A stretch of 64,000 nt of DNA. It comes from an uncultured Gammaproteobacteria bacterium (GTDB taxonomy: Bacteria > Pseudomonadota > Gammaproteobacteria > GCA-001735895). The stretch spans positions 72,714 to 136,713 of the forward strand of contig CAMYLU010000005.1 of NCBI GenBank assembly GCA_947259485.1, read 5' to 3'. Within the stretch, counting starts at the first letter, position 1. Each line of letters starts with the position of its first letter. Shown here in pieces: positions 1 through 21,425 of the stretch. The translations under genes were made by a program, and so were the position numbers. The notes beneath the pieces were generated by a model. It was not told the origin of the DNA, ran no database searches, and saw nothing but the letters and a program-made list of their open reading frames with translations.

Positions 1-253
1 GCCTGCTGGTTATTGTCGGTGCCTTCGCCCAGCTCTACATCATCATCGTCGGTGGGCAGGCGTATCCGCTCAACATTTTCCCGGGTTATATCGTGGAAAG
101 CAGCTTCTTCGATGGTGTGATCAACGAATATACTCCGAGCCTGTGGGAATTTCTGCTCGGGTTCGGCGGGGTTACCGGCGCGCTGTTGATCGCACTGCTC
201 GGCATTCGGGTACTGCCCATCATGCCGGAAAGCCTGCCAGCCGAGGTACAATA
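1..253 (+). CDS. dsrP: DsrP C-terminal fragment (NrfD/PsrC-family membrane subunit of the DsrMKJOP complex); 5'-truncated by the window edge
   Basis: Frame starting at nt 2 translates to a hydrophobic C-terminus (LLVIVGAFAQLYIIIVGGQAYPLNIFPGY...GIRVLPIMPESLPAEVQ*) typical of NrfD-like proteins. It lies immediately upstream of a DsrN homologue, matching dsrP-dsrN-dsrR order. Confidence 0.6.
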
Positions 254-257
254 GGTT

Positions 258-1664
258 ATGGCTTCGCTATTTCTCTCCGCGGCACACAAATCATCGGGTA
301 AAACCACGCTCAGCATCGGCCTGTGTGCGGCCCTGGTCAAACGCGGCTTTGATGTGCAGCCTTTTAAAAAGGGTCCCGACTATATTGACCCGATCTGGCT
401 AGGGATGGCCGCCGGGAAACCCTGTTACAACCTCGATTTTTTCGTCGCCGGCCGACAGGAAACGATTGACGACTATTGTTACCGAGGGCAGGCAGCTGAT
501 ATTCGCCTGATCGAGGGCAACAAGGGACTGCATGACGGACTTGACCTGGATGGTAGCAATAGCAATGCAGCGTTGGCAAAAGCACTGAAGGCCCCGGTCA
601 TCATGGTCGTCGATGCCCGCGGCACCATGCGTGGCATCGCACCCCTGTTAATCGGCTACCAGGTGTTCGACAAAGAAGTCAACATCGCCGGTGTCATCGC
701 TAACATGACCGGCGGCCGGCGGCACGAATCCAAGCTGCGTGCGGCAGTCGAAGAATATACCGACATCCCGTTCCTGGGAGCAGTTGAAAACGACGCATCC
801 ATCGGCCTCGATGAACGTCATCTCGGGTTAATTCCCAGTTACGAGGACCCTGATTCCAGGCACAAGATCAATACTATTGCCGGCGTGATCGGCGATAACG
901 TCGACCTGGATAAACTGGTCGAAATAGCGCAACAGGCAAAATCGGTTAAGCCGGCAACATCGCCATTGCTGCGCAAGCCCGAATTTACCGGTTTGCGTAT
1001 CGGCATTGCACAGGACAGCGCCTTCGGCTTTTATTACCCCGGAGACCTCGAAGCATTCCGCCAGGCAGGCGCGCAGCTGGTTTCGATCGACACCACCCGG
1101 GATCAGTCCCTGCCCGCAATCGATGGGCTTTTTATCGGTGGTGGATTTCCCGAGCGCCATGCGGCAATGCTCGCCGCCAATGGCACAATGCGCAATTCGA
1201 TAAAAAACGCGATCGAAGCCGGCCTCCCAACCTACGCGGAATGCGGTGGCTTAATGTACCTGTCACGAAGCCTGACCTGGAATGAAGCCAGCTATGACAT
1301 GGTCGGCGTGCTCGACGCGAAGTCTGTCATGCACGAAAAATCCCAGGGTCGTGGCTACGTTAAACTCGGCGAAATCGAAGGTCAGCATCCCTGGACTTTT
1401 CAACGTCAGCCCGGCAATGATTTACATGCGCATGAATTTCATTATTCAGCGCTACAGGGATTACCCGATGATGCCGTATATGCCTACCAGGTCCTGCGAG
1501 GCAAGGGGATCCGGCAGCAGCATGACGGATTCGTTTACAAGAATTTACTCGCCTCTTATAGCCACCTGCGCGACACCGCGGCGAATCCCTGGGTGAAACG
1601 CTTTTTACACTTTGTGCAACTCAACAAGGCTTCGCCTGTAACCGAGGTCGCTAATGCCCTGTAA
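258..1664 (+). CDS. dsrN: DsrN, cobyrinic acid a,c-diamide synthase homologue (siroheme amidase of the dsr locus)
   Basis: 468 aa with a CobB/CbiA-family ATPase N-terminus (AAHKSSGKTT P-loop-like) and a glutamine amidotransferase C-terminus (ECGGLMYL). It is followed by a DsrR-like gene. Confidence 0.75.
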   Translation: MASLFLSAAHKSSGKTTLSIGLCAALVKRGFDVQPFKKGPDYIDPIWLGMAAGKPCYNLDFFVAGRQETIDDYCYRGQAADIRLIEGNKGLHDGLDLDGSNSNAALAKALKAPVIMVVDARGTMRGIAPLLIGYQVFDKEVNIAGVIANMTGGRRHESKLRAAVEEYTDIPFLGAVENDASIGLDERHLGLIPSYEDPDSRHKINTIAGVIGDNVDLDKLVEIAQQAKSVKPATSPLLRKPEFTGLRIGIAQDSAFGFYYPGDLEAFRQAGAQLVSIDTTRDQSLPAIDGLFIGGGFPERHAAMLAANGTMRNSIKNAIEAGLPTYAECGGLMYLSRSLTWNEASYDMVGVLDAKSVMHEKSQGRGYVKLGEIEGQHPWTFQRQPGNDLHAHEFHYSALQGLPDDAVYAYQVLRGKGIRQQHDGFVYKNLLASYSHLRDTAANPWVKRFLHFVQLNKASPVTEVANAL

Positions 1665-1672
1665 TCCCCGCC

Positions 1673-1987
1673 ATGATTAGTCTCTCTGCCACGGCCCTGG
1701 AACAGATTAAGCTTTCCACGAACCAGGATGAAAATCACTCGCTGCCAATACGTATCGCCATCAAGGAACAGGACGACGGCAGTTTTCACTACGCCATGGG
1801 ATTCGATGAACAACGGCTGCCGGGTGACAATTTTCTGAATTTTGACGGTGTCAACCTGGTTGTCTCCGAGGGCAGCAAGGACCTCGCGGAGGGTATGACC
1901 ATCGACTTCGTCGAGCTGGAACCCGGTAAACCCGAGTTTATATTCCTCAATCCCAACGACCCCACCTATGTCCCACCCCGGAAGTAA
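1673..1987 (+). CDS. dsrR: DsrR, IscA/HesB-like protein lacking cysteines
   Basis: 104 aa with an IscA/HesB-like fold signature (ISLSATALEQIK...). It contains no Cys at all, as described for DsrR. Its position directly after dsrN supports the call. Confidence 0.65.
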   Translation: MISLSATALEQIKLSTNQDENHSLPIRIAIKEQDDGSFHYAMGFDEQRLPGDNFLNFDGVNLVVSEGSKDLAEGMTIDFVELEPGKPEFIFLNPNDPTYVPPRK

Positions 1988-2050
1988 CAGTTCCACCAGG
2001 CAGGTTCGCTCGATCGTTTAAATCGGTATACTTGCGAGAATAAGGAAGCA

Positions 2051-3709
2051 ATGAAACCGTCTTATTCGACCGACTTTCTCGCTATGTCCGGACACGATCC
2101 ACATTTACTGCGCAAGACCAACCTGTTTAATGCATGGTTTGTCAGGCTCGATAAAGAAAAACGTAACCTGCTGAAAAGCGGCAGGTTTCGACTGTTATTC
2201 CTGTCCTTTTCAATTCTGATCCTGTTGTTGTTGAACCTGATTGGCGTGGTAAAGCCCGACAGCGCTCTTGCCATCAGCTTACAAGATTACGTCGTCTGGA
2301 TGCACACTTTGGAAATCGTGCTACTGCTGTTGCTGTTCTGGGAGATCTGGCGTGAACTATTGCAACCGTTGTTACGACTGTGCGACTGGGCGGACTTGAT
2401 GCGCGGCGTCAATCTCGATGCGCAGGTCGAACTAAGCAGCGACAGCGATTTCTCCGAGCTGGCTCGCGACATCAACATGCTCGGCAACATGATTAATCAA
2501 CTCTCGCGCGATACCGAGACCCAGCTGCAAAAACATACCGACTACATCACGCGCGAGTCGAGGTCACTGGCGATACTTTACGATGTCGCCTCAAGCATAA
2601 ACGCGTCGCGTGACCTTAACGAGCTGTTCGAAAAATCGCTCGAATCCCTGTGCAAAAACTTAAACGCCAGCGCCGGAATTATTCGCCAGTTTATAGGCAA
2701 AAATAAAAAAGATATCGTCGCTTCTCTCGGCGACATAAATCATACCTTCCTCTCGAGCGCCGATCACTTTCTGTCGATTGACTATCCATCTGGTGATATC
2801 AAGCTCGATAGCATTTACCGCATTGACAGCCTTGACCATAAAACCGTGTTTGGTCCCGGTAGCACGCATCGGCAGGAAAAGGTACGGGTGCTGTCGATAT
2901 TGCTGCAGTACCGCGAAGGCATACTCGGTGCGATTCATTTGTTTTTTGAAGATGATGGCTCGGTCGATCTTGAAGACTACAGCGAGCTGCTGCTGAGCAT
3001 CGGCCAACACCTCGGCAGCGCGGTGGAGAAATTTCGCCTGCTCGAGGAAGAAAGTGAATTGCTGGTAATGCAGGAACGAACCCGGTTATCGCACGAACTG
3101 CATGATTCGCTGGCACAAACCATCGCCAGTTTACGCATCCAGATTCGCGTCATCGACGAGACTTTTCATTCGAATGATGAAAAGGCCATCTGGCACCAGA
3201 TGGAACGCATCGAGTACACCATCGACCAGGCTAATCACCAGTTGCGTGAGTTGATCGCCCATTTCCGGGTACCCATTCATGAGCAGGGCCTGATCCCTTC
3301 GATCGAGGATAACGTTCGCCGCACCCAGCAAGAAATGGGCATCCCCGTCTATTTTCAGAACGAATGGCCGGAGCAGGAATTTAGCGCGGAAGTCGAACTC
3401 AACGTGCTGCGCATTGTTCAGGAATGCCTGGTTAATATCCGCAAGCACAGCCAGGCCGAGGTCGTTCGGGTATTACTCAGTTACCGTGAGGGCGACAATA
3501 TCGTGTTAATCGAGGATGACGGTATCGGGTTTGACGAATCGTCGATCATATCCGAAGGGGGACGTCACCTGGGCCTGAATATTCTGCGCGACCGGGCAAG
3601 AGAAATTAATGCCAGCATCGATATCGAAAGTGAGCCCGGTGACGGGACCCGGATACACTTGCAGTTCAAAGCCGAGCCGGTAAAGGCGCTACTCGAATCC
3701 ACTGGCTGA
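2051..3709 (+). CDS. Sensor histidine kinase (2 TM - HAMP - GAF-like - HisKA_3 - HATPase_c; NarX/NarQ-like but without a periplasmic domain)
   Basis: Two closely spaced TM helices are followed by an H-box typical of HisKA_3 (RLSHELHDSLAQTIASL). The C-terminal ATPase has N/G-box-like motifs (IEDDGIGFD, GGRHLGLNILRDRA). An AAGGAAG RBS precedes the ATG. Confidence 0.8.
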   Translation: MKPSYSTDFLAMSGHDPHLLRKTNLFNAWFVRLDKEKRNLLKSGRFRLLFLSFSILILLLLNLIGVVKPDSALAISLQDYVVWMHTLEIVLLLLLFWEIWRELLQPLLRLCDWADLMRGVNLDAQVELSSDSDFSELARDINMLGNMINQLSRDTETQLQKHTDYITRESRSLAILYDVASSINASRDLNELFEKSLESLCKNLNASAGIIRQFIGKNKKDIVASLGDINHTFLSSADHFLSIDYPSGDIKLDSIYRIDSLDHKTVFGPGSTHRQEKVRVLSILLQYREGILGAIHLFFEDDGSVDLEDYSELLLSIGQHLGSAVEKFRLLEEESELLVMQERTRLSHELHDSLAQTIASLRIQIRVIDETFHSNDEKAIWHQMERIEYTIDQANHQLRELIAHFRVPIHEQGLIPSIEDNVRRTQQEMGIPVYFQNEWPEQEFSAEVELNVLRIVQECLVNIRKHSQAEVVRVLLSYREGDNIVLIEDDGIGFDESSIISEGGRHLGLNILRDRAREINASIDIESEPGDGTRIHLQFKAEPVKALLESTG

Positions 3710-3713
3710 GGCG

Positions 3714-5168
3714 ATGGCGAAAAGAATTTCACTTTCACGTGCGGCCCGCCTCGTCGGGGTAAAACGGGGAGTCCTGCAACAACAAATCAGGTCGGGAGAG
3801 TTGCAAACCTTCGAAGGTGAAATTGTATTGTCAGACCTGCTGCATGCTTATCCGGACGCCCAGATCGAGGATTCAAGCATGCTCGAACGGGTTGAGCAAA
3901 TCATCGAGCAGGCCACTTTCATCAATCCCGATAGCATCGCGCGCAAGCCTGACAATGTCGCCCTGACCGCGCGCATCATGTCGTTGAGCGAGAACCTGTC
4001 ACGACAAAAACGACTACTTGATCGCTACCAGCGCTTTACCGATGAACTGCGCGCTGAAATCAACAGGCTCGAGGCACAGCCCGATGCGATGCAACAACTG
4101 GGTTCCTGGGTTGATCAAGCCACGGCCAGAATTCCGACAGACGATGATACAATAGATCAACCATTCGTTAACGAAACGTTTTTACGTGTTATGTCGGCAC
4201 AGGCAACAGTCATTCCCAGCGGTCACGAGTTCTTCGTTGAAGGTGCAGAATCTATTCTGGAAGCGGGCCTGCGCGGGGGACTGGCGCTCAATTACGGATG
4301 CAGTAACGGCAACTGCGGCCTGTGCAAGATCCGTGTAGTGTCGGGAGAAACCCGCAAAATAAAACATCACGATTATGCACTTACCGAGGCTGAAAAAGGC
4401 ATTGGCTATGTGCTGGGTTGCTGCAACACTGCGATATCCGATGTCGTGCTCGAAGCCGACGAGGCACAGAGCACCAAAGACATCCCGACGCAGAACATTC
4501 CAATCAGGATAAAAAAAATCGATCATCCCGACGCCGATGTTTTAATCGTCAGCACGCGAACGCCACGCACCAGTCGGCTACGATTTCTTGCGGGCCAGCG
4601 CGCAACGCTTTCGATTGACCAGGTGGGTTCGGGATTTTATCCGATTGCAAGCTGCCCCTGCGACGATATGAATTTACAGTTCCATATCGGGCTCGATAAA
4701 CGGGACCCTGTCGCGAACTACCTGGATGAATCTGCAAAAGCAAACGACCTGTTAACACTGGAAGGTCCGGTCGGCTCATTCGTTCTCAATGAGAACTCTT
4801 CCAATCCCCTGGTATTCATCGCCGAGGGCATTGGATTCGCGTCCATCAAGGGCCTGATCGAGCACGCCATGGCGCTCGATGTAGCGGAAAAGATTTTCCT
4901 GTTCTGGATAGCCGACAGCGAAGATTCTCACTATCTCAACAATCTTTGCCGTGCCTGGAATGATGCGCTGGACAACTTCGAATACATCCCGCTCGACGCT
5001 GAAGCCGGCGAGCATCCAGGAGACAGCATCCTCGAACAGCTGCAACAGGATGATCCCACTGGTTTCGATTATTACCTCTGTAGTGGTGATAAAATTCGGG
5101 CCGGGGTAGAGCAATTTTTTGACAGGCAGGCAATTCCGAAACAACAGGTTATGTTCGAGACCTTATAG
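3714..5168 (+). CDS. Fusion protein: N-terminal HTH_17/MerR-like DNA-binding domain, coiled-coil linker, plant-type [2Fe-2S] ferredoxin domain and FNR-like FAD/NAD(P)-binding oxidoreductase domain
   Basis: N-terminus is LSRAARLVGVKRGVLQQQIRSGEL, an HTH pattern. Ferredoxin Cys motif is GCSNGNCGLC...LGCC. FNR-like motifs are RFLAGQRATLS and an EGIGFAS NAD-binding glycine-rich loop. The gene is packed between the HK (5 nt gap) and the RR (17 nt gap). Confidence 0.65.
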   Translation: MAKRISLSRAARLVGVKRGVLQQQIRSGELQTFEGEIVLSDLLHAYPDAQIEDSSMLERVEQIIEQATFINPDSIARKPDNVALTARIMSLSENLSRQKRLLDRYQRFTDELRAEINRLEAQPDAMQQLGSWVDQATARIPTDDDTIDQPFVNETFLRVMSAQATVIPSGHEFFVEGAESILEAGLRGGLALNYGCSNGNCGLCKIRVVSGETRKIKHHDYALTEAEKGIGYVLGCCNTAISDVVLEADEAQSTKDIPTQNIPIRIKKIDHPDADVLIVSTRTPRTSRLRFLAGQRATLSIDQVGSGFYPIASCPCDDMNLQFHIGLDKRDPVANYLDESAKANDLLTLEGPVGSFVLNENSSNPLVFIAEGIGFASIKGLIEHAMALDVAEKIFLFWIADSEDSHYLNNLCRAWNDALDNFEYIPLDAEAGEHPGDSILEQLQQDDPTGFDYYLCSGDKIRAGVEQFFDRQAIPKQQVMFETL

Positions 5169-5185
5169 ATGAAAGGACACCTATC

Positions 5186-5848
5186 GTGAGTTTAAAAGTT
5201 TTACTAATCGACGATCACATGCTGTTTCGTGAAGGCCTGATCAGCCTGCTGCAACGGCGTAACATCGAGGTTCTTGCTGCGGTCGGTGATGGCAACGAGG
5301 GTATCAAGCAGGCGCAGGAATTAGAACCCGACATTGTCTTGCTCGATAAGCGCATGCCGGTTATCGATGGTATCAGCGTGTTGAAGCATTTGAAAAAGCT
5401 CGGTTTGACCATGCCAATCGTTATGTTGACAACCAGTTCGAACGAGCAGGATTTGCTCGACGCACTCAAGGCAGGCGCAAGCGGTTACCTGCTCAAGGAC
5501 ATGGAACCCGATGGCCTGGTATCGGCGTTACGCGATATTCACGTCGGCAAAACGGTGGTGGCACCGCCGCTAACCTCGGTGCTGGTGCGTTTTGTCAAGG
5601 GTGATATGACGGTTTCACAATCGAAGGGACCGTTCAGTGAGTTAACCCCGCGGGAAAGCGAGATCCTCGAACTGATGGCCGAGGGCCAGGGTAACAAGCT
5701 GATTGCCCGCAACCTCGGCATATCGGATGGAACCGTAAAGCTACATGTCAAGGCAGTACTCAGGAAGCTCAATGTGCATTCACGCGTCGAAGCCGCGGTC
5801 ATGTACATCGAGCACAAGCACCGGGTCGAGGACCCGGTCGAGGAATAA
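5186..5848 (+). CDS. Response regulator, NarL/FixJ family (REC + LuxR-type HTH)
   Basis: GTG start with an AAAGGA RBS. REC motifs are present (LLIDDHMLFREGL, DIVLLDKRMP). The C-terminus has a LuxR HTH (LTPRESEILELMAEGQGNKLIARNLGISDGTVKLH). Confidence 0.85.
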   Translation: MSLKVLLIDDHMLFREGLISLLQRRNIEVLAAVGDGNEGIKQAQELEPDIVLLDKRMPVIDGISVLKHLKKLGLTMPIVMLTTSSNEQDLLDALKAGASGYLLKDMEPDGLVSALRDIHVGKTVVAPPLTSVLVRFVKGDMTVSQSKGPFSELTPRESEILELMAEGQGNKLIARNLGISDGTVKLHVKAVLRKLNVHSRVEAAVMYIEHKHRVEDPVEE

Positions 5849-5944
5849 CCGTCTGTAAAACCATTTGCGGCAATTTGACCCAGGACAAAATCCGGGAATT
5901 CGGCGGAGAGTAAGCTGAATCTAAATTCCTGAGGAGGAAAGGAT

Positions 5945-6292
5945 ATGATGCCGATTACCGTCGAATTTATCGTCAAAAATGGTGATAAATCACTTAAAGA
6001 AGATAGCGTAACTTTCCGTAATCCCGAGGAATTGTTCGCTTACATAGCACCCGGCGGGGGTTGCGAGCATATGCCTTCCGACCTGGGGGAGATCCAGATG
6101 GTCTTCCTGCCCCCGGAGCATCCAAATATCACCAGTCCCATCGCGGACAAGCGCGTCACCCTGCAACTCGGAATCGTGTTAATCACCGGTCCCCTGTCGA
6201 CGATCGTTCAGGTTTCCCAGGAAATTATCGACAAGGTCGGGCGCGCGGAAGTATCCGAGGCCTTCCTGGCGGTGATTGGTGCCAATTACTGA
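5945..6292 (+). CDS. Hypothetical protein (115 aa)
   Basis: Strong RBS GAGGAGGAAAGGAT precedes the ATG. No recognisable domain. Confidence 0.45.
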   Translation: MMPITVEFIVKNGDKSLKEDSVTFRNPEELFAYIAPGGGCEHMPSDLGEIQMVFLPPEHPNITSPIADKRVTLQLGIVLITGPLSTIVQVSQEIIDKVGRAEVSEAFLAVIGANY

Positions 6293-6396
6293 CTAGTGGA
6301 ATCATCATTACCTGTTGCATACTGCGCTTCTATTAACAGGGATGTAAGCCGCAGCTTTAGCAGGTAATATGGCGCGAAATTGGGCGTATCGACAGT

Positions 6397-8166
6397 ATGG
6401 CAATACGATCTCACTGTAACCGACGGCGAGGCAACTCCTTGAATAGAAATATCATTCCACGGCTAATAGCAGTTTTTGTTGCTACCCTGCTGAGCCTGTC
6501 TGTGGCCACGGCACAGACGGACCAGGCGGAGGCAACAGCGGCGACGCAGCAAGCTGCCGAGACCCAACAGGCCCAGTCGGTCCGCAAGCTACTCGCGATC
6601 AGGGAAGCATTGCAGGAAAAACGCGAACGGATCAGGGATTTACTCGAACAACTGGAAACCGCTGACGAGACTGACAAGGAAACGCTCAACCAACAGATCG
6701 ACACACTCCGGGAAACCATTGGTGAACTGACCAGATCCTTCGAAAATATCGCCGTTGGTGGTGCAAATTTACGTAACCTGACCGATGCCGAGGATAGCAA
6801 ACTGGACTGGCGCGACGAGCTGCTCCAGATCGCCCAGCCATTGTTAAACAGCCTCAAAGAAGCGACCGAGAAACCTCGCCGAATCGAAGAACTGCGCAGC
6901 ACGATTAACCTGTACGAGCAGCAACTGGAGGTTACCAGGAAGGCAACCGAGTCCATCGCACTGTTCGACCAGTACGAAATGCCGCCGCTGGTTGCCGAGG
7001 GATTGGCTAGCGTCGCAGTTTCATGGCAGGAGCGCAGCGAGGACATCGAACGTTCACTTGAAATCTCGCGCGTCGAGCTACGCAACCTCGAACAGGAGAA
7101 AATTAAACTATTCGAAACAATAAGCCGCGTCTTGAACGATTTTTTCTGGGGGCGAGGACTGACCTTGCTGCTCGCGCTAGTTACCGGCTTCGTCCTCTGG
7201 TTTGCGATGCGGACGCTGCGCCGGCTGGTAAAATCCTGGCGTCATCCTGCACAGCATCCAGACCACGCCGCAAAAATTCGCCTGCTGCTTTACGGATATC
7301 ACCTACTGACAATACTACTGGTATCGATGGCTGTGCTTTCGGTATTCTATATACGCGGTGACCTGTTATTGCTGACACTGGCAATTATCGCGCTGGTGAT
7401 GCTCGCTCTCGGCGCCTGGCGTTTCCTGCCGCGTTACGTTCAGGAAGCTCGCCTGTTGCTCAACATTGCCGCCGCCCGCGAGGGAGAACGGGTGATCTAC
7501 AACGGACTGCCGTTTCGCATCGCCTCACTTAACCTTTATTCGGAATTACGCAATCCCGAGCTTGAAGGCGCAATCCGTCTGCCCTTGTCGGCGCTAACCC
7601 AACTGACTTCGCGCCCTCGCACCAACGAAGCCTGGTTTCCCTGCAGTGCCGGCGATTACGTACTGCTGCCGGACGGAAGTTTCGGCCAGGTCCTCGAGCA
7701 AACCGTGGAACTGGTTCGGCTCAAGGTGATTGGCAGCATAGTACAGTTTGGCACTGCCGAGTTTTTACAACTTAATGTGCGCAATCTATCGCGTGAGGGC
7801 TTCGGCGTTATCGTGGTCTTCGGAATCGATTACCAGCACCAGCAGATATCGCTGACTGGGGTTCCCGAACGCTTCATGAGCGGCCTAAAAACCGCGTTCG
7901 AGCAGGCCGACTACGGCGACGATCTGAAAAACCTGCTGGTAGAGTTTAAAGAGGCTGGCACCAATTCCCTGGACTACCTGATATACGCGACCATGGAGGG
8001 TAGTGTCGCAGCCTCGTACTTCACGATAGCACGCCTGATACAACAGACCTGCGTGGACATATGCAATCACGAGGGCTGGGTTATTCCGTTCACGCAGGTC
8101 ACCATACACCAGGCAGACGATGAGGAACCGGCCGATATCCGCGGAAGTTTAGCGCAACCGGTCTGA
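6397..8166 (+). CDS. Mechanosensitive ion channel, MscS/MscK-like, with an N-terminal periplasmic coiled-coil domain
   Basis: A signal-like hydrophobic stretch and an extended coiled coil are followed by 3 TM helices and an MscS-type beta/C-terminal domain. The true start may be the in-frame TTG at 6439. Confidence 0.75.
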   Translation: MAIRSHCNRRRGNSLNRNIIPRLIAVFVATLLSLSVATAQTDQAEATAATQQAAETQQAQSVRKLLAIREALQEKRERIRDLLEQLETADETDKETLNQQIDTLRETIGELTRSFENIAVGGANLRNLTDAEDSKLDWRDELLQIAQPLLNSLKEATEKPRRIEELRSTINLYEQQLEVTRKATESIALFDQYEMPPLVAEGLASVAVSWQERSEDIERSLEISRVELRNLEQEKIKLFETISRVLNDFFWGRGLTLLLALVTGFVLWFAMRTLRRLVKSWRHPAQHPDHAAKIRLLLYGYHLLTILLVSMAVLSVFYIRGDLLLLTLAIIALVMLALGAWRFLPRYVQEARLLLNIAAAREGERVIYNGLPFRIASLNLYSELRNPELEGAIRLPLSALTQLTSRPRTNEAWFPCSAGDYVLLPDGSFGQVLEQTVELVRLKVIGSIVQFGTAEFLQLNVRNLSREGFGVIVVFGIDYQHQQISLTGVPERFMSGLKTAFEQADYGDDLKNLLVEFKEAGTNSLDYLIYATMEGSVAASYFTIARLIQQTCVDICNHEGWVIPFTQVTIHQADDEEPADIRGSLAQPV

Positions 8167-8210
8167 CAGGCCCTGCCGGGGTAAACCCGGGTGATTGATT
8201 GCAGATGGAT

Positions 8211-8534
8211 TTACAACAGCAGTATCAGGACGATGACTATCAACAGGAGATTGGTTGTGCTGACACCTGCACCCGCGGGTAATTCGGCAATTTGGCCCTG
8301 CAGGCTGGATATTTGCTGATCGGTCATCTGTTTAACGCGGTCGCTGGCTTCGATGGGGTCGATTCCAAGCTCAATTAATTGCTGTTCAACATGTTGACGT
8401 TCGGCGATGTTTCTAACCAATTGGGCGCGTTCTGGCTCGGCAATCAAATGAGGTGTTGATACCATCGCTGCGAAGGCGGTTGAGGTCGATAACCACAACA
8501 CGGCCATCAAGATTATTTTTACCGGGTATTTCAT
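8211..8534 (-). CDS. Small secreted/anchored hypothetical protein (signal peptide plus C-terminal hydrophobic tail)
   Basis: N-terminal signal peptide MKYPVKIILMAVLWLSTSTAFA and a C-terminal LLLIVIVLILLL anchor. Confidence 0.5.
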   Translation of the reverse strand: MKYPVKIILMAVLWLSTSTAFAAMVSTPHLIAEPERAQLVRNIAERQHVEQQLIELGIDPIEASDRVKQMTDQQISSLQGQIAELPAGAGVSTTNLLLIVIVLILLL

Positions 8535-8807
8535 TAATTTCTTCTCCTTATCCTATTTATTCAATCGCAGATTGAAAACTGTGAGAACCATGACCAAGCA
8601 TAGTTCATCGATCGAGGTCTGCACGCCCCAACCGGCGCACGAATCCCGGTTCTGTTGGCATCGATAACAACCAGGCTATTAAAATTGGAATAGGACAGGC
8701 TTTTTTATGCTGGCGTTGCTAGTTCAGGCAACCTAAAGATAGCCAAGCCGATATTTCAGACTAGGAACCTCAGAGCCGGGGTATTACGGTATAACGGCCA
8801 GGTAAAA

Positions 8808-8883
<76 letters not shown>

Positions 8884-9100
8884 GGCACGGTCATTGTAAC
8901 GCCAAGGCAGACTCTCGCAAGTTCCCGGCCAGGGTCGTCGATCGGCAGTGCTTCGCGTGCGATGTATTCAGGATGCAACGGTTGCGTTATGTTTCGCAAT
9001 CAGTTGCCTGTTAAAATAGGTGATTCCGAATTATCGGCCCGTGACTTTTTCCGTCCCCGCGAAGTCAAGGCTGAACTCTAACGATAAATGAGAGACCGCA

Positions 9101-12518: not shown

Positions 12519-15044
12519 ATGCCGGCTTCAGAGATCGTCTTTGTATTGGTGGTACTGCTGGGCATAGCCATGCTGGTTACCGGAACCTGTCGGAACCTGC
12601 CGATTCCGTTCACGGTAATCCTGGTGCTGATTGGCATGCTGCTGGGCTACCTGTCCCATGTGCTGCATTTCATGGAACCACTTCAGGGATTCACCCTGGG
12701 CCCTGAAATCATGTTATTCGTTTTTCTACCCGCGCTCATATTTGAATCCGGCTTTGCACTGGATGCGCGCCAGATGATCAAAGATCTGCCACCGATACTG
12801 ATTCTCGCCATACCCGCGATGCTCATGTCCACCTTCGTAGTCGGCCTGGGGGTCTGGTGGGCCCTCGATATCAAACTCATTGTCGCGCTGGTATTCGGGG
12901 CATTAATCTCCGCCACCGACCCGGTCGCGGTGGTCGCACTGTTTAAGGAACTGGGTGCGCCGAACCGCCTGAATGTCCTGGTCGAGGGCGAATCCCTGCT
13001 CAACGACGCTACCGCCATCGTGGCTTTCTCGATTTTACTCGGTATAGCCGTCGAGGGCGGCGGCATCAGCTGGTCCGATGCCGATAATATATTCCTGGAT
13101 TTTCTCAGGGTGTTTATCGGGGGCGCCTTGTTCGGTGCTTTCCTGGGATTCGTGGTCTGCGAATTATTATATCGAATGCAAAGCGGAATCAGCGTTATTC
13201 TGACGTCATCAATCATCATCGCCTATGCCAGCTTCGTCATTGCCGAGCACGCATTCCACGTGTCGGGTGTCATGGCCGTGGTCGGATCGGCAATTGCCCT
13301 GAGGCGATTCGGCGTAACGCGGTTTCGCCAGGATACCACCCATTCCATCCACGAGGTCTGGGAGGTTATCGCCCTGTCCTGTAATTCGCTGCTGTTTTTA
13401 CTGGTCGGCTTATCGATCAGCATTGTCACGCTTTTTAGCCAGCTCGGGCCTATAGCCATTGCGATTGCTTTAGTATTGAGCGCACGGGCACTGTCGATTT
13501 ATAGCATTGTTCCGCTGGCGGTAAAGTGGTTTAAGCTGCCACACATCAGCATGGGCGAGCGCCACATCATGTGGTGGGGCGGCCTCAAGGGCGGCCTCGC
13601 TATTGCCGTGGTGCTTTCAATCCCCAGCGACCTGCCGGAGCGCCAGTTCCTGTTCGAGGTGACGCTCGGAGTGGTGTTGTTTACGCTGTTGATCAGCGCA
13701 CCCACGATACGCCCGCTGATGCATTTTCTCGGCTTAAACGAGTTTTCCAGGGGGGAAGAACTGGAGTACCGAAACTCGCTGCAGGGAGCCGAAGAAACTT
13801 CCCAGAAATATTTGGCAAACCTGGCCGCGAGCAAGATTGTTCCGAGGGGCACGGTTACTCCCTTGCAGGACCAGATTCATCAAACCTTTTCCAGTGGTAG
13901 CGATGAAGACGAAACAAAAGCGCACGAAAACGACGAATATTTTGCCGAATTCAGGGCCTATCGAGTGGAACGAGAATCATTGAAATCACTCTACGAGACT
14001 GGCGTTATCAGCCAGTACATTTATCTCGATATGAACAACAGGTTGCATGCCGTGCAGGAATCTCTGCGCCTGGGTGAAGCGGGGATTGGAGAAGTCGACG
14101 AATCGGAAGAGCTCACCCTGTTTCAAAGACTCGAGATTTTTGTGCTGGGTAAAATTCGTGAAAAAACCTGGCTTGCCGGGTGGCTTTCAAAATACCAGGA
14201 ACAAAGGACAGTACACCGGGTGCAACGCAACCTGGCGCATATCCTGGTATGCACTGAAGTGATAGCAATGCTTGGCCGGCAGAATGATTTGCTTGAAGAC
14301 GCCAGCAACAGCGTGATATCTGCCTACGAGTATCGAAAAAAATACTACCGTAAACAGCTGAAACAAATCAGGAAATATTATCCAACATACTACATGCAAT
14401 TTCTCGAACGACTCACGACCCGGTCGATGATCAACAGTGGCTGGAACCGGGTAAAGTCCGAGTTCGCCCATGGTGATCTCTCTGCCAAGGGTTTCAACCT
14501 GGTGCAGTCCAAAGTACAAGCGGTTTTGGCGGAGGTCGACGAGTCACCGCTGATTTTCTCGAAAACGGTCAACACCATATCCGAATACCTGGAGGATATT
14601 GACCTGTTTCACGATTTAACCGACAAGGATTTTGCCTTCCTCGAGGAAAATTCTTCGATAGTCACGTTTCTAGCCGGTGATACCATCATGGGCCGCTTTG
14701 AAGCGGGCATAGATTTCTATGTGCTGGTCGACGGCAAGGCGACTGTCTGGATCAAGGATGCATTCAGTCGCGAGCAGTTCATGGCCGAGCTTCTGAAGGG
14801 AGACTTTATGGGTGAATCCGGCCTGCTGGCCAAGCAGAAAAATCGTAAACATCACCGCAGCGCCACGATAAAAGCTGAAACACCCTGCACACTGATCCGG
14901 ATCTCACCCGATACCATGTCGCGAATACTCTGGAAGTACCCAAAAATTCTGCAGGAGATACGCGAGATCAATGAGGCCCGTTTAAGCGTACGTCCGAAGA
15001 GCACCGATGAACTGCGTGTCTACAAGCCCCATAAAAAGCATTAA
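12519..15044 (+). CDS. CPA1/NhaP-type Na+(K+)/H+ antiporter fused to a C-terminal cyclic-nucleotide-binding domain
   Basis: The N-terminal roughly 400 aa is polytopic, with the NhaP signature region (ATDPVAV). The C-terminus has a cNMP-binding beta-roll (FLAGDTIMGRFEAGIDFYVLVDGKATVWIKD...GESGLL). Confidence 0.8.
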   Translation: MPASEIVFVLVVLLGIAMLVTGTCRNLPIPFTVILVLIGMLLGYLSHVLHFMEPLQGFTLGPEIMLFVFLPALIFESGFALDARQMIKDLPPILILAIPAMLMSTFVVGLGVWWALDIKLIVALVFGALISATDPVAVVALFKELGAPNRLNVLVEGESLLNDATAIVAFSILLGIAVEGGGISWSDADNIFLDFLRVFIGGALFGAFLGFVVCELLYRMQSGISVILTSSIIIAYASFVIAEHAFHVSGVMAVVGSAIALRRFGVTRFRQDTTHSIHEVWEVIALSCNSLLFLLVGLSISIVTLFSQLGPIAIAIALVLSARALSIYSIVPLAVKWFKLPHISMGERHIMWWGGLKGGLAIAVVLSIPSDLPERQFLFEVTLGVVLFTLLISAPTIRPLMHFLGLNEFSRGEELEYRNSLQGAEETSQKYLANLAASKIVPRGTVTPLQDQIHQTFSSGSDEDETKAHENDEYFAEFRAYRVERESLKSLYETGVISQYIYLDMNNRLHAVQESLRLGEAGIGEVDESEELTLFQRLEIFVLGKIREKTWLAGWLSKYQEQRTVHRVQRNLAHILVCTEVIAMLGRQNDLLEDASNSVISAYEYRKKYYRKQLKQIRKYYPTYYMQFLERLTTRSMINSGWNRVKSEFAHGDLSAKGFNLVQSKVQAVLAEVDESPLIFSKTVNTISEYLEDIDLFHDLTDKDFAFLEENSSIVTFLAGDTIMGRFEAGIDFYVLVDGKATVWIKDAFSREQFMAELLKGDFMGESGLLAKQKNRKHHRSATIKAETPCTLIRISPDTMSRILWKYPKILQEIREINEARLSVRPKSTDELRVYKPHKKH

Positions 15045-15094: not shown

Positions 15095-16858
15095 TCAGGC
15101 GATACCCGGGTTGCCGGCCACGTTTTTAATTTTCGGGGTGTTCAACTTCTTGATGCGCGCGGTATCCTCGCGGCGCAGGTAGTCTGCAACCACGTCCCAG
15201 ATCGGCGCACCCGGTGACTCCGAACCCACGGTTGCCCAGCCGGCCACCTTGTAATTCTTCGCCGCTTCAATGGGAGTACCATCGTCGAGCTGCATGTCAG
15301 TAATTCTTTCTCCGGCACCGGCACCCGGATCGATACTGTAATCGAGGCCACCCAGGCGCACCATGTCACCACCCTGCTGGTAGTAAGGATCCTTGTTGAA
15401 CAGGTTGTCGGCAACGTCTTCGAGAATCAGTTTGATGTTTTCACCGGTCATTTCACGCACATAGGTTTCAGGGTAGGTAATGCAGGTTTGGTCCATGACG
15501 TGTTCCATCGTGATTGTTTGTCCCGACAACACGGTAGTGCCCCAGCGGAATCCCGGGGACAGCGATATCTGTGCATCGCCCTCGACACGCAGCGCATCGC
15601 AGATCACCTGGTCAAAGGTACCGTTAAAATTCCCGCGTCGGAACAGCAGGTTTTCGGCAACCGCCAGTTCTTCCTGCAACTTTGGCAGGTAGGGCTTACG
15701 AACCTTTTCTACATAAGCGGCCATCTCTGCATCCGCATCGAGCAGATTTGAGAAAACCGGCAGCAAGCGATAGCGGAAATCGCGTAGCTTCTTGTTCTTG
15801 TAGTCCAGATCCATAACACCCAGGAACTTGCCGTTGGAGCCCGCGTTGGTAACCAGTGTTTTACCACCGGGATTGGTTACGGGTATCGCTTTCGGCACAC
15901 CATCATGCGTGTGACCACCAAATATCGCGTCGATGCCGCTGACTCGAGACGCCATCTTGAGGTCAACGTCCATGCCGTTGTGCGACAGCACGATCAACCC
16001 GTCGGGACTCTCCTCGTCGCGTGCCTGCTCGACGATTTCCTGCATATCGCCTTCGTTGATGCCAAAGGTCCAGTCCGGGATAAATCGTTGCGGATTTGCG
16101 ATCGGCGTATACGGGAATGACTGGCCGACCACGGCAATGCGCAAATCCCCCATTTCCCGAATCGTGTAAGGCTTGAAGACATGCCCGCTGTCTTCATTGA
16201 AGTCACCCAGGTCGGCAAGCTCATAGTCAAACAGTGCATCTTCCTTGACCTTGCAATTCTGGCTGACGAATTCACCATCGAAAATCTCGGCATTATCGAG
16301 GATTTCGGCCGCCAGGTAGGTAAATTCCCAGTGGCCGGTCATGACATCAACCCCGAGTAAATTGCAGGCCTCAACCATATCCCGTCCCCGGGTCCAGAAT
16401 GCCGTACCCGAACCCTGCCAGGTGTCACCGCCATCGAGCAGTAGCGAGCGCCCCTGCGTATATTCCGCACGTAACTTCTTGACCAGGGTTGTGAGGTGAG
16501 CAAAGCCACCAATCTTGCCAAAGGTGCGCGCGGCTTCTTCAAAATTGATGTAGGTATAAGCATGTTCCTCGATACCACCATGCGCAATGCCAAACTGTTT
16601 AACCAGGTTTTTTCCAACCAGGTGCGGCGCCTTACCGAAGGCGTCACCGATGCCGAGATTGACACTGGGTTCACGGAAATAAATCGGGTTAAGCTGTGCA
16701 TGGCAGTCGGTAAAGTGCAGGATGCGTGCATTGCCAAAGGCCGGCATGTCATAGAGTCTGGAACCCTCGCTGCTTGCCGAATATCCGGCTCCTGGAAACA
16801 GTCCTGCAGCACCGGCGAGCCCGAGCAGCCTGATAAATTCTCTACGGTTCAAGTTCAT
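15095..16858 (-). CDS. soxB: SoxB, thiosulfohydrolase (5'-nucleotidase/metallophosphatase family) with a Tat signal peptide
   Basis: Tat motif RREFIRLLGLAGAAG and metallophosphoesterase motifs (HFTDCHAQL, GGDTWQG, GHWEF). The 587 aa length and a 5'-nucleotidase-like C-terminal domain fit. RBS GAGGGGG precedes the ATG. Confidence 0.8.
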   Translation of the reverse strand: MNLNRREFIRLLGLAGAAGLFPGAGYSASSEGSRLYDMPAFGNARILHFTDCHAQLNPIYFREPSVNLGIGDAFGKAPHLVGKNLVKQFGIAHGGIEEHAYTYINFEEAARTFGKIGGFAHLTTLVKKLRAEYTQGRSLLLDGGDTWQGSGTAFWTRGRDMVEACNLLGVDVMTGHWEFTYLAAEILDNAEIFDGEFVSQNCKVKEDALFDYELADLGDFNEDSGHVFKPYTIREMGDLRIAVVGQSFPYTPIANPQRFIPDWTFGINEGDMQEIVEQARDEESPDGLIVLSHNGMDVDLKMASRVSGIDAIFGGHTHDGVPKAIPVTNPGGKTLVTNAGSNGKFLGVMDLDYKNKKLRDFRYRLLPVFSNLLDADAEMAAYVEKVRKPYLPKLQEELAVAENLLFRRGNFNGTFDQVICDALRVEGDAQISLSPGFRWGTTVLSGQTITMEHVMDQTCITYPETYVREMTGENIKLILEDVADNLFNKDPYYQQGGDMVRLGGLDYSIDPGAGAGERITDMQLDDGTPIEAAKNYKVAGWATVGSESPGAPIWDVVADYLRREDTARIKKLNTPKIKNVAGNPGIA

Positions 16859-16867
16859 AACGCCCCC

Positions 16868-17593
16868 TCAGGCAAATATTTCATTTAGTTCGGCCAGGTT
16901 TTCGACCACCAGGTCCGGGTTGGAATCGCTGATATTTTTGCCGTGATTATATCCATACGGTACGCAGATGACGCCGAATCCAGCCGCGCGCGCCGCCAGC
17001 ACATCATTGCTCGAGTCACCAACCATCAGGCAGGTATCATATTCGAGGCCGAAGTAATCCGCGGCGTAATGCAGTGGCATCGGATCAGGTTTTTTCCTGG
17101 CGGTTGTATTACCGGCGACAACTAGCTCAAAAAAGGAATCCATTCCCATCGCCGCGATCAGCTTCGAGGTAAAAGGTTCCGGCTTGTTGGTAACACAGGC
17201 GAGATGCAATTCGAGCTTACTAAGACGTTCCAGGGTTTCGATAACTCCCGGGTAGACTTCACTATGATCGCTGGCATGCTCACCATACAGCTTGCTGAAA
17301 ATTTCCAGGCCGGCCTGGAAAAGGCTCTCCTCCGGCTCGGCGTTCATATCGTTGGTCAGAACACGCTTGACGAAGCGCTCGAGGCCGTTACCGACCCAGT
17401 TTCGTGCGGCCTGCGGATCCTGCAACGGCATTTCCAGCGCACGCAACATTTCGTTGCCACACCATGCCAGGTCACCCACGCTATCAACGAGGGTGCCATC
17501 GAGATCGAACAGTACCAGTTTGAACCGGCCGAAAGTGCGATTATGTTTCCCTCTGCGGCTATCGGTCCGGCTTGTGGCTGCTTGCATATCCAT
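16868..17593 (-). CDS. gph: Phosphoglycolate phosphatase (HAD family; CbbZ/Gph)
   Basis: HAD motif I is LVLFDLDGTLVDS. It sits at the 3' end of the cbb operon, the typical cbbZ position. The true start may be internal. Confidence 0.75.
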   Translation of the reverse strand: MDMQAATSRTDSRRGKHNRTFGRFKLVLFDLDGTLVDSVGDLAWCGNEMLRALEMPLQDPQAARNWVGNGLERFVKRVLTNDMNAEPEESLFQAGLEIFSKLYGEHASDHSEVYPGVIETLERLSKLELHLACVTNKPEPFTSKLIAAMGMDSFFELVVAGNTTARKKPDPMPLHYAADYFGLEYDTCLMVGDSSNDVLAARAAGFGVICVPYGYNHGKNISDSNPDLVVENLAELNEIFA

Positions 17594-17701
17594 TGTTAAA
17601 TGCTTGTTACGACAGGTTAAAAGTCAGCTAGTGTACAAAACTATCAAAATCGGGCATCCAATGTAATAACCCGATAGCAATAGGCGCTATTACTTTCTTA
17701 C

Positions 17702-20077: not shown

Positions 20078-20093
20078 TTTAGTTTATCGGTTG

Positions 20094-20179
20094 CTGTCAT
20101 CCCGCGGCTTGACCGCGGGAACCAGCGCGAAGGTAAACTGCCAGCACTTCTGGATACCGCGGTCGAGCCGCGGTATGAC
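20094..20179. other. Compound palindrome (two GC-rich hairpins nested in an outer TGTCAT/ATGACA inverted repeat) in the cbbQ-cbbO spacer
   Basis: tgtcat-CCCGCGGcttgaCCGCGGG-...-TACCGCGGtcgagCCGCGGTA-tgaca is read directly. Confidence 0.6.
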
Positions 20180-20208
20180 AGTGGGTGAGCGTCCCCGCAG
20201 CATAAGGC

Positions 20209-21042
20209 TTAGAAGTAGGTATCGACAGCGGCGTAGAGCGTATCGCGCATATCGGGATCGTCGGTGAGCGGGGTAACCAGCGCCATACGGCAAGCGGCGG
20301 CGGGCGCGACTCCCTCGGCCATCAGTTGCGCCGCGTAGATCAGCAACCGCGTCGACATGCCCTCGTCGAGACCATGTCCTTTCAAATTTCGCGAGCTGGT
20401 ACCAACCTGCACCAGCTTGCCGGCGATTTCGGCATCGACACCGGCTTCGTGGGCAACGATTTCAGCCTCGATATCGGCCTCAGGATAGTCGAAATCGAGT
20501 CCGCCAAATCGCTGCTTGGTAGATTGTTTGAGATCTTTCATCAACGACTGGTAGCCCGGGTTATAGGAAATGACGATCTGAAAATCCTCGTGTGCTCTGA
20601 CCAGCTCGCCTTTCTTTTCCAGCGGCAACTCGCGCCGATGATCGGTCAGCGGGTGAATAACCACCGTCGTATCCTGGCGCGCCTCGACAATTTCATCGAG
20701 GTAGCAAATGGCACCGATACGCGCAGCCACCGTCAGCGGACCATCCTGCCAGCGGGTCCCGTTGATATCGAGCAAGTAACGTCCGACCAGGTCCGAGGCA
20801 GTCATATCCTCGGTACAGGCGACGCTGATCAACGGTTTCTGCAGTTTCCAGGCCATGTATTCGACGAAGCGCGACTTGCCACAACCTGTCGGCCCCTTGA
20901 GCATAACCGGCATGCGTACCTGGTAGGCCGCCTGGTAGTTTTCGACCTCGTCAACCACCGGCCGGTAATAAGGCTCCTGCTGCACCAGGTATTGCTCCCG
21001 ATCCGAGCCTGACACAGCTAACTGTTCCGCCGCATCCGACAT
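20209..21042 (-). CDS. cbbQ: CbbQ, MoxR-type AAA+ RuBisCO activase
   Basis: Walker A is GPTGCGKS. The size fits the MoxR/CbbQ family and it lies immediately downstream of cbbS. Confidence 0.85.
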   Translation of the reverse strand: MSDAAEQLAVSGSDREQYLVQQEPYYRPVVDEVENYQAAYQVRMPVMLKGPTGCGKSRFVEYMAWKLQKPLISVACTEDMTASDLVGRYLLDINGTRWQDGPLTVAARIGAICYLDEIVEARQDTTVVIHPLTDHRRELPLEKKGELVRAHEDFQIVISYNPGYQSLMKDLKQSTKQRFGGLDFDYPEADIEAEIVAHEAGVDAEIAGKLVQVGTSSRNLKGHGLDEGMSTRLLIYAAQLMAEGVAPAAACRMALVTPLTDDPDMRDTLYAAVDTYF

Positions 21043-21044
21043 GA

Positions 21045-21401
21045 TTAAGCACTATTGGCCCGGTAAATAACCATCGAGGTGCCCTGCGACTGCGCGTAAT
21101 TGTCGTACCCGACCAGGCGAACGTGATTGCCGGGATGGGCCACGTGACAAGCATCTACTTCGCCCAGAATAGTATCCACTTCGGTTTCACCAAACATGGG
21201 CAATTTCCACATGTACCAGTAGTGCGCGAAGGCATTTTCGGGCTCGGTGTGCTCAACCGCCGGATTCCAGCCCTTGCTGACGATATACTCGACCTGCTTG
21301 ACCAGTCCCTCGCGGCTCATTTCGGGCAGGTAAGAAAAGGTTTCGAACTTGCGGCTGGCTTCGTCCGTCAGGCTCGATTGATAGTCTTGCATTTCACTCA
21401 T
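21045..21401 (-). CDS. cbbS: RuBisCO small subunit (form I)
   Basis: 118 aa with a typical RbcS motif (the [11 protein letters not shown] region). It is 24 nt downstream of cbbL. Confidence 0.9.
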
Positions 21402-21425
21402 GATTAATTCCTCTCAAATTTCGTA

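Follow-up and report, generated by a model that had tools for sequence, protein, structure and literature searches.

Positions 2051-5848 of a 64,000-nucleotide stretch of contig CAMYLU010000005.1 from an uncultured gammaproteobacterium (the window; coordinates are those of the whole stretch unless a locus is named) hold three co-directional plus-strand genes directly downstream of dsrP-, dsrN- and dsrR-like genes. They encode a sensor histidine kinase, a fusion protein combining a predicted winged helix-turn-helix (HTH), a [2Fe-2S] ferredoxin domain and an FNR-like module, and a NarL-type response regulator. The reading that we favour, tentatively and with slightly less than even confidence, is that this is a three-gene dsr-linked regulatory operon in which a separate protein has taken over iron-sulfur (Fe-S) sensing from the kinase. 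It turns on a coincidence of gain and loss: comparable kinase/regulator pairs end dsr clusters in many other genomes, most of their kinases carry a cysteine motif spaced as in the Fe-S sensor kinase AirS, and the loss of this motif is found in exactly those kinases that have a fusion gene next to them. Because this reflects a single evolutionary event, the correlation is suggestive only.

A dsr-linked two-component system

The three open reading frames (ORFs) cover 2051-3709 (552 residues), 3714-5168 (484 residues) and 5186-5848 (220 residues). An initial annotation of this DNA had described them as tightly packed, co-directional and placed directly after dsrP, dsrN and dsrR, and both this arrangement and the ORF coordinates are confirmed; of the two gaps it gave as 5 and 17 nucleotides, the second is correct, whereas the first is off by one and measures 4 nucleotides.

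The kinase (2051-3709, plus strand) is of the HisKA_3 type, with Pfam matches to HisKA_3 at residues 342-408 (48.4 bits, cutoff 24; H351) and HATPase_c at residues 449-542 (50 bits, cutoff 26.4), intact H-box (HELHD), N-box and G-box (DDGIGF), and DesK as its best match in the PDB. Its two transmembrane segments (residues ~46-67 and ~80-100) lie just ~12 residues apart, leaving no room for a periplasmic domain, and are followed at residues ~101-330 by a diverged HAMP-like and GAF-like input region with a weak match to GAF_2 (E-value 0.0046). The regulator (5186-5848, plus strand, GTG start) is a NarL/FixJ-type protein with a Response_reg domain (97.8 bits, E-value 5.5e-28), a GerE domain (80 bits, E-value 1e-22) and residues D9, D10, D54, T82 and K104 all present, and is 80-99% identical across the clade to which the window belongs (the window clade, defined below). 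With their catalytic residues retained, both proteins appear competent for signalling. The pair shares with NarX-NarL and NarQ-NarP the HisKA_3/HATPase_c core, the cytoplasmic HAMP/GAF-like region and the Response_reg plus GerE regulator, and these systems are also its best NCBIfam matches; it differs in lacking the periplasmic P-box sensor, in being linked to dsr rather than nar genes, and in scores that stay below the equivalog cutoffs (NarQ 189 against 553 and NarX 138 against 578 for the kinase, NarL 217 against 250 for the regulator). The earlier descriptions of a NarX-like HisKA_3 kinase without periplasmic sensor and of a NarL/LuxR response regulator thus stand, the former at scores far below cutoff.

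A metagenome scan seeded with these kinases yielded 80 loci, whose kinases are 41-58% identical to that of the gammaproteobacterial locus L047, an orthologue with significant HAMP and GAF_2 domains. DsrR lies directly upstream of the kinase in 39 of 54 judgeable loci and DsrN in 34 of 41, a regulator follows directly downstream in all 69 judgeable loci, and a relative of the fusion protein occurs within 10 kb in 1 of the 80. Given DsrR upstream and the regulator downstream at these frequencies, dsr clusters commonly end in a NarL-type two-component system, and embedding of the fusion gene is confined to the window clade. In related lineages without the embedded fusion, the kinase and regulator genes overlap. 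The siroheme synthase gene cysG is found within 4.5 kb downstream of the pair in 10 of 38 judgeable loci, often in convergent orientation, which hints at a link to siroheme supply. A literature search found no paper describing a two-component system attached to dsr clusters, and the literature searched names just DsrR, DsrS and DsrC as possible players in dsr regulation.

Cysteine motifs in the kinase input region

The domain content of the input region separates the two groups of kinases. Among 42 kinases from loci without an embedded fusion, GAF_2 is detected in 39, GAF in 30 and HAMP in 29; among 13 kinases of the window clade, GAF_2 is detected in one and HAMP in none. In a joint alignment, three cysteine columns within the GAF domain are occupied in 37, 37 and 38 of the 42 non-embedded kinases, as well as in those of loci L047, L075 and L077, and in none of the 13 window-clade kinases, the window's own included. 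The cysteines show a C-x-C-x17-C spacing in 32 of the 42 (drawn from loci L086-L165), and in 29 a glutamate precedes the first of them by eight residues.

This spacing matches that of AirS from Staphylococcus aureus, which is described as binding a [2Fe-2S] cluster through Cys-X7-Cys-X-Cys-X17-Cys (PMC4601167) and is a HisKA_3 kinase with a NarL-type partner involved in redox sensing (PMC8774646). A further precedent is Bacillus licheniformis NreB, whose three-cysteine [2Fe-2S] cluster senses sulfide and controls sqr (PMC13478379). From the match in spacing and the NreB precedent we infer that the dsr-linked kinases outside the window clade are Fe-S sensor kinases, sensing redox state or sulfide.

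The likeness to both systems is partial. AirSR (YhcSR) also pairs a HisKA_3 kinase with a NarL-family regulator and shares the C-x-C-x17-C part of the motif, but the dsr-linked kinases are anchored in the membrane and encoded at the end of dsr clusters; AirSR, moreover, has no separate Fe-S protein, and the window kinase lacks all three cysteines. NreABC resembles the window in combining a HisKA_3 kinase (NreB), a NarL-type regulator (NreC) and an accessory protein, with an Fe-S cluster in NreB and sulfide-oxidation genes under its control. The NreB cluster, however, lies in a PAS domain and has a different cysteine spacing from that of the dsr-linked kinases, and NreA, the accessory sensor protein that modulates NreB (PMC8774646), is a GAF-type nitrate binder without Fe-S cluster or DNA-binding domain, unlike the accessory protein of the window.

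Three other cysteines of the window kinase, C111, C201 and C459 (nucleotides 2381-2383, 2651-2653 and 3425-3427), are invariant in the window clade (13 of 13) and absent in nearly all related dsr-linked kinases, two of 42 having a cysteine at the position of C459; one of the three lies inside the N-box (QECLxN).

Architecture of the fusion protein

Sequence searches with the N-terminal 160 residues of the fusion protein gave nothing significant in Pfam or NCBIfam: HTH_17 reaches an E-value of 0.074 in the window protein and 6.1e-5 in one of 30 diverse relatives, and a profile search against PDB sequences with the N-terminus matched just 14 residues of a designed HTH peptide. The fold was hence settled by structure prediction. 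A model built from a diverse alignment has predicted local distance difference test (pLDDT) values of 90-97 over residues 1-50 (3714-3863, plus strand) and shows the beta-alpha-alpha-beta-beta-alpha order of a winged HTH. Its top structural matches are CvkR, NmlR, RdfS, TnrA, AlpA and SoxR, and the Foldseek list consists almost entirely of MerR-family and excisionase proteins, with no E-value reaching 0.001 for this small domain. According to the model, the winged HTH spans residues 1-47 and is of the MerR superfamily/excisionase kind. The HTH_17/MerR-like N-terminus of the initial annotation is therefore upheld by structure prediction as a winged HTH, but not as a Pfam family match.

Residues 55-160 (3876-4193, plus strand) form a helical region that is poorly conserved in sequence, with pLDDT values of 85-97 for residues 81-139; a predicted 39-residue helix (81-119) agrees with the coiled coil previously placed after the HTH and is a candidate dimerisation element. 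The order of a winged HTH, a long helix and a sensor module recalls SoxR and the MerR family, whose structures dominate the fold matches and in which SoxR is itself a [2Fe-2S] redox switch. Compared with that family, however, the HTH resembles more the minimal excisionase/BldC type and is not significantly matched by Pfam MerR or HTH_17, the cluster would reside in a full ferredoxin domain rather than in a short C-terminal cysteine loop, and an FNR-like domain is added. PutA and Rex likewise couple DNA binding with a dehydrogenase-like module and can thereby place transcription under redox control, but their folds and cofactors are unrelated to those of the fusion protein and the analogy is one of logic only.

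The ferredoxin domain (residues 161-250; 4194-4463, plus strand) is matched by Pfam Fer2 with an E-value of 3e-11 (43.5 bits, cutoff 21), and its ligand pattern C196-x4-C201-x2-C204...C236 is kept in 255 of 256 relatives, which bears out the plant-type [2Fe-2S] domain with conserved cysteines originally proposed. Together with the winged HTH it is the most conserved part of the protein (0.91 each within the window clade; 0.63 for the HTH and 0.64 for Fer2 across the family), and the NAD-like domain at the C-terminal end is the least conserved globular part (0.69 and 0.48, respectively).

Residues 263-484 (4500-5168, plus strand) comprise an FNR-like beta-barrel and a Rossmann-like domain, modelled with pLDDT values of 75-95 and matched by Foldseek at E-values of 4.5e-16 to 9e-15 to T4moF, GcoB, the CarAd reductase, NqrF and BenC. 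The initial annotation had seen here a complete FNR-type FAD/NAD(P) reductase. The fold is indeed FNR-like, but completeness is contradicted: the window protein has no Pfam FAD_binding_6 match, and NAD_binding_1 stays below its cutoff (17.3 bits against 22); of the four families expected from the protein, HTH_17, Fer2, FAD_binding_6 and NAD_binding_1, Fer2 is the one recovered. In alignments with PDB sequences, G-F-Y-P stands in the window protein opposite the flavin-contacting R-x-Y-S of GcoB, BenC and T4moF. This motif is absent in all 256 relatives, its arginine and serine columns being unconserved and its tyrosine kept only in the window clade. The nucleotide-binding GGxGxxP is reduced in the family to xxxGFA(P/S), with only the third glycine conserved (E-G-I-G-F-A-S in the window), and the degeneracy is stronger in the window clade than in the rest of the family. 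An E-value of 0.001 is reached for FAD_binding_6 by 9 and for NAD_binding_1 by 13 of 78 window-clade proteins, and by 15 and 9, respectively, of 30 diverse relatives. Immediately past the site where the flavin motif has been lost lies C314-P315-C316 (4653-4661, plus strand), a C-P-C motif kept in ~253 of 256 family members, HTH-less relatives included, which may be a metal site, a redox-active dithiol or a persulfide acceptor.

With the flavin signature missing and the FNR-like module least conserved, the earlier suggestion of a flavoprotein that reports the NAD(P)H state is doubtful. The pattern of motif loss and conservation suits a sensory or regulatory role better than a catalytic one. A contrary explanation holds that the fusion protein functions as an active NAD(P)H-dependent oxidoreductase in sulfur or siroheme metabolism, reducing for instance disulfides or persulfides through its [2Fe-2S] cluster and C-P-C, with the HTH serving autoregulation, as in PutA. 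The high significance of the FNR-like fold speaks for it, as do the Pfam matches of the diverse relatives, the HTH-less relatives of ~325 residues (one that was checked is a genuine stand-alone gene), the cysG, DsrC-like and FCSD-like neighbours at some loci, and the fact that C-x-C motifs can be redox-active. We nevertheless consider it improbable, in view of the absence of R-x-Y-S throughout the family, the degenerate nucleotide-binding motif, the low conservation of the NAD-like domain and the lack of a consistent enzymatic partner gene near the stand-alone genes. Residues 161-484 do share with the BenC, AntC, MmoC and T4moF reductases the Fer2-FAD-NAD domain order, the fold and the plant-type [2Fe-2S] cysteine pattern; beyond the motif losses, the fusion protein departs from them in its N-terminal winged HTH and helices, its near-invariant C-P-C, the absence of an oxygenase partner gene, and NCBIfam scores that are all far under the cutoffs (111 against 430 for BenC).

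Distribution and gene neighbourhoods of the fusion family

The fusion family gave 5315 matches in the protein collection. At 50% identity its full-length members make up ~80 clusters, in addition to the HTH-less relatives, and the family is present in at least 586 species genomes, mostly of sulfur- or iron-oxidising Gamma- and Betaproteobacteria. Among 84 loci compared, all 18 with a fusion protein at least 58% identical to that of the window (the window clade) have the order dsrN-dsrR-kinase-fusion-regulator, and only in this clade does the fusion gene lie between the kinase and regulator genes. The gene is thus linked to both the pair and dsr throughout the clade, in line with the initial annotation. 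The gap between kinase and fusion genes is 4 nucleotides in 16 of the 18 loci, a spacing kept across 58-98% identity, and that between fusion and regulator genes ranges from -4 to +18 nucleotides in 17 of 18.

At the remaining 66 loci the fusion gene has no adjoining kinase or regulator gene, with the exception of L075 and L077, two betaproteobacterial loci at which it is convergent with and adjoins dsrN-dsrR-kinase-regulator, and of L047, at which it lies 5.6 kb from dsrN-dsrR-kinase-regulator, amid DsrC-like, Rieske, FCSD-like and cysG genes. The fusion gene is hence found near the same dsr-linked pair in three layouts (embedded, convergent-adjacent and 5.6 kb away). At L077 it is broken by an in-frame stop (3952-3954 of 3613-5076 in that locus) into an HTH part of 113 residues and a Fer2-FNR-like part of 360 residues, which may reflect pseudogenisation, a fault of the assembly or a genuine division of the gene. 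Elsewhere its surroundings vary: it is often convergent with petABC-sspAB, and also occurs next to guaB/xseA, helicases or cysG, and inspection of the neighbours of stand-alone genes gave no consistent partner (TrpD-like, Sel1, FadL-like, PilZ, acyltransferase, DEAD helicase and pet-ssp genes). Since 66 of the 84 loci are stand-alone genes, the fusion protein works autonomously, and its place inside the operon results from an insertion confined to one lineage. The proposal of a redox-sensing third component is accordingly strengthened on one side, the kinases adjoined by the fusion having lost C-x-C-x17-C, and weakened on the other, most family members standing alone.

This distribution also lends itself to a second explanation: the fusion protein could be an independent one-component redox regulator, with MerR-like logic and SoxR-like chemistry, that is merely co-transcribed and makes no contact with kinase or regulator, the kinase sensing something else. 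Most family members do stand alone in unrelated contexts, the winged HTH is the most conserved domain even within the window clade, and the kinase may have a new signal of its own, since in this clade its input region has kept a conservation of 0.78-0.86 and three clade-specific cysteines are invariant. What lowers its probability is that the insertion falls exactly between two genes that overlap in related lineages, with the 4-nucleotide spacing kept as the sequences diverged; that it coincides with the loss of the kinase cysteine motif; and that the fusion gene recurs near the same two-component system in several layouts. We regard this explanation as possible, if somewhat unlikely. A neutral insertion without functional meaning, with the cysteines of the kinase lost by unrelated drift, would be compatible with a single insertion event and with stand-alone copies at many unrelated sites; it is very improbable, as the three genes are intact, their order and spacing are conserved in 18 of 18 loci down to 58% identity, and all three proteins retain strongly conserved functional residues. 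By likelihood, the independent regulator ranks first among the three rivals, the reductase with an autoregulatory HTH second and the neutral insertion last.

Putative promoter region, dsr cluster and host

The spacer between dsrR and the kinase gene is 63 nucleotides long and contains a promoter-like element followed by a putative ribosome-binding site (2005-2048, plus strand): TTCGCT at 2005-2010, a 16-nucleotide spacer with TTTAAA, TATACT at 2027-2032 and AAGGAAG at 2042-2048. In an alignment of 11 loci TATACT is invariant, and the TTYGC box and the TTAAA upstream of it are conserved. A consensus promoter and terminator scanner flagged neither a promoter nor a terminator-like site in this spacer, so that the box is visible by alignment of the loci alone, and the palindromes between dsrR and the kinase gene are trivial ones of 6 nucleotides only. 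The three-gene operon probably has its own promoter, to judge from this conserved box, and transcription may in addition run into it from the dsr operon.

Upstream, a dsrP-like gene of the NrfD family is truncated by the window edge (3' end, 1-254, plus strand; frame 3 is open until the stop at 252-254); at locus L005, which is 98% identical, the corresponding NrfD-family gene encodes 399 residues and stops 3 nucleotides ahead of dsrN. The dsrN-like gene (258-1664, plus strand) encodes a CobB-type a,c-diamide synthase (NCBIfam cobB subfamily, 413 bits, cutoff 261; Pfam GATase_3 and CbiA), and its synteny with DsrO-, DsrP- and DsrR-type genes is conserved. The dsrR-like gene (1673-1987, plus strand) encodes an IscA-like protein of 104 residues (Pfam Fe-S_biosyn, 26.4 bits; weak NCBIfam IscA/ErpA matches) with no cysteine at all, as described for DsrR by Grimm et al. 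2010, cited in PMC11406059. At L005, DsrK-, L-, J-, O- and P-type domains precede dsrN in the expected order. The ...KLJOPNR order, with the DsrN amidase and a cysteine-free IscA-like DsrR at its end, identifies a reverse-dsr cluster, an assignment made from the genes seen, as dsrAB lies outside the window. A few kb downstream of the operon, the minus strand (15095-22850) carries genes for a SoxB-like protein of the 5'-nucleotidase family, a HAD hydrolase, CbbO, CbbQ and the RuBisCO large subunit. On account of its SoxB-like, CbbO, CbbQ and RuBisCO genes, the window belongs to a sulfur-oxidising autotroph, an uncultured gammaproteobacterial chemolithoautotroph.

The operon had been proposed to replace dsrS, which follows dsrR in Allochromatium vinosum (dsrABEFHCMKLJOPNRS) and in strain Hiromi 1 (PMC4136832). 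In Thioalkalivibrio, however, the dsr cluster stops at dsrR and dsrS is located elsewhere in the genome (PMC5328954), and with such clusters known, a replacement is not established for the window. Genes at the 3' end of dsr are implicated in regulation in A. vinosum as well, namely dsrR and dsrS, according to the account of Grimm et al. 2010 given in PMC11406059; a kinase, regulator or Fe-S HTH protein is not part of that description, whereas the window has a full two-component system after dsrR. At locus L001 a 365-residue DUF6765 gene (4981-6078 of that locus, minus strand) lies between dsrR and the kinase gene. It was considered as a possible DsrS and ruled out, being present at this locus only and on the opposite strand.

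Proximity of cysG, either downstream of the kinase-regulator pair or next to stand-alone fusion-family genes, was noted at L087, L102, L108, L118, L131, L133, L136, L140, L146, L148, L151, L153, L154 and L158, and also at L047, L052, L063, L075 and L079. No second fusion-family paralogue and no pet-ssp locus were found in a search of the window. Behind the regulator gene follow two ORFs (5945-6292, 115 residues, and 6397-8166, 589 residues) that have no match in Pfam or NCBIfam and recur only at the most closely related loci, L005 and L006; the longer product has membrane segments and a long helical N-terminal part. Further downstream are a DUF6627 gene (8211-8534, minus strand), a tRNA gene (8811-8883, minus strand), besides which an Rfam scan of positions 1-9000 returned nothing, and a gene for an 841-residue Na+/H+ exchanger fused to a C-terminal cyclic-nucleotide-binding domain (12519-15044).

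Discussion

The favoured reading, a transfer of Fe-S sensing from the kinase to the fusion protein, can be put as a sequence of steps. The dsr-terminal kinase/regulator pair would most likely control sulfur-oxidation or siroheme-related genes, and its ancestral kinase would have sensed redox state or sulfide through an AirS-like Fe-S site in its GAF domain. In the window clade this site and the recognisable GAF and HAMP signatures would have been lost, and a gene of a separate, widespread family would have entered at the exact junction of the kinase and regulator genes. The fusion protein would now be the Fe-S sensing element, its activity set by the state of the cluster and possibly by the C-P-C thiols; it would act on DNA through its own HTH, as stand-alone family members must, and would probably also gate the kinase through the diverged input domains. 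Gene order, domain content, conservation patterns and the coincidence of gain and loss are observed, and cofactor binding, the kind of signal, binding to DNA, contact with the kinase and the target genes are inferred from sequence, structure models and synteny.

Several observations weigh against this reading. The coincidence of gain and loss, being one event, may be due to chance or lineage drift, and the high conservation of the winged HTH fits a purely DNA-directed role without kinase contact. The dsr-linked motif has three of the four AirS cysteines, with glutamate instead of cysteine at the first position, and is likened to AirS by its spacing. The full-length model of the fusion protein is mediocre because the underlying alignment is shallow (pLDDT 68.9, with the ferredoxin part below 50). 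About half of the stand-alone relatives pass Pfam FAD_binding_6, so that some flavin binding is possible. As to DNA targets, the GGTATACTKRCG box occurs three times in the window against 0.6 expected, a count reached in 6 of 100 shuffles, and a search ahead of 62 stand-alone genes brought out no common operator, the k-mers that recur there reflecting relatedness or upstream coding sequence.

A bolder version of the transfer, which we hold to be unlikely, would make the system a split Fe-S sensor kinase: the AirS/NreB-like GAF site would have been replaced by an HTH-[2Fe-2S]-flavin-less FNR-C-P-C protein docking on both kinase and DNA, acting as a master switch for reverse-Dsr oxidation in response to sulfide, sulfane sulfur or redox state.

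What appears to be new is a dsr-terminal two-component system with an embedded winged HTH-[2Fe-2S]-pseudo-FNR protein, the undescribed family to which that protein belongs, and an apparent transfer of sensing from a kinase to a separate protein. How the reverse-Dsr pathway is switched on is poorly understood, and the operon is a concrete candidate for the control of sulfur oxidation. Three objects emerge for study: a two-component pair at the end of the dsr clusters of many uncultured sulfur oxidisers, with an AirS-like cysteine motif in its GAF domain; a widespread, unannotated family in which a DNA-binding domain is combined with a [2Fe-2S] domain and an FNR fold devoid of the flavin motif but bearing C-P-C; and the window clade, in which a gene of this family has entered the pair while the kinase lost its cysteines. 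The window clade represents a natural experiment suggesting that sensing can move from a kinase to a separate protein. If this is true, Fe-S signalling of the kind known from AirS, NreB and SoxR would reach into environmental sulfur cycling, and a pseudo-reductase scaffold would be employed for sensing.

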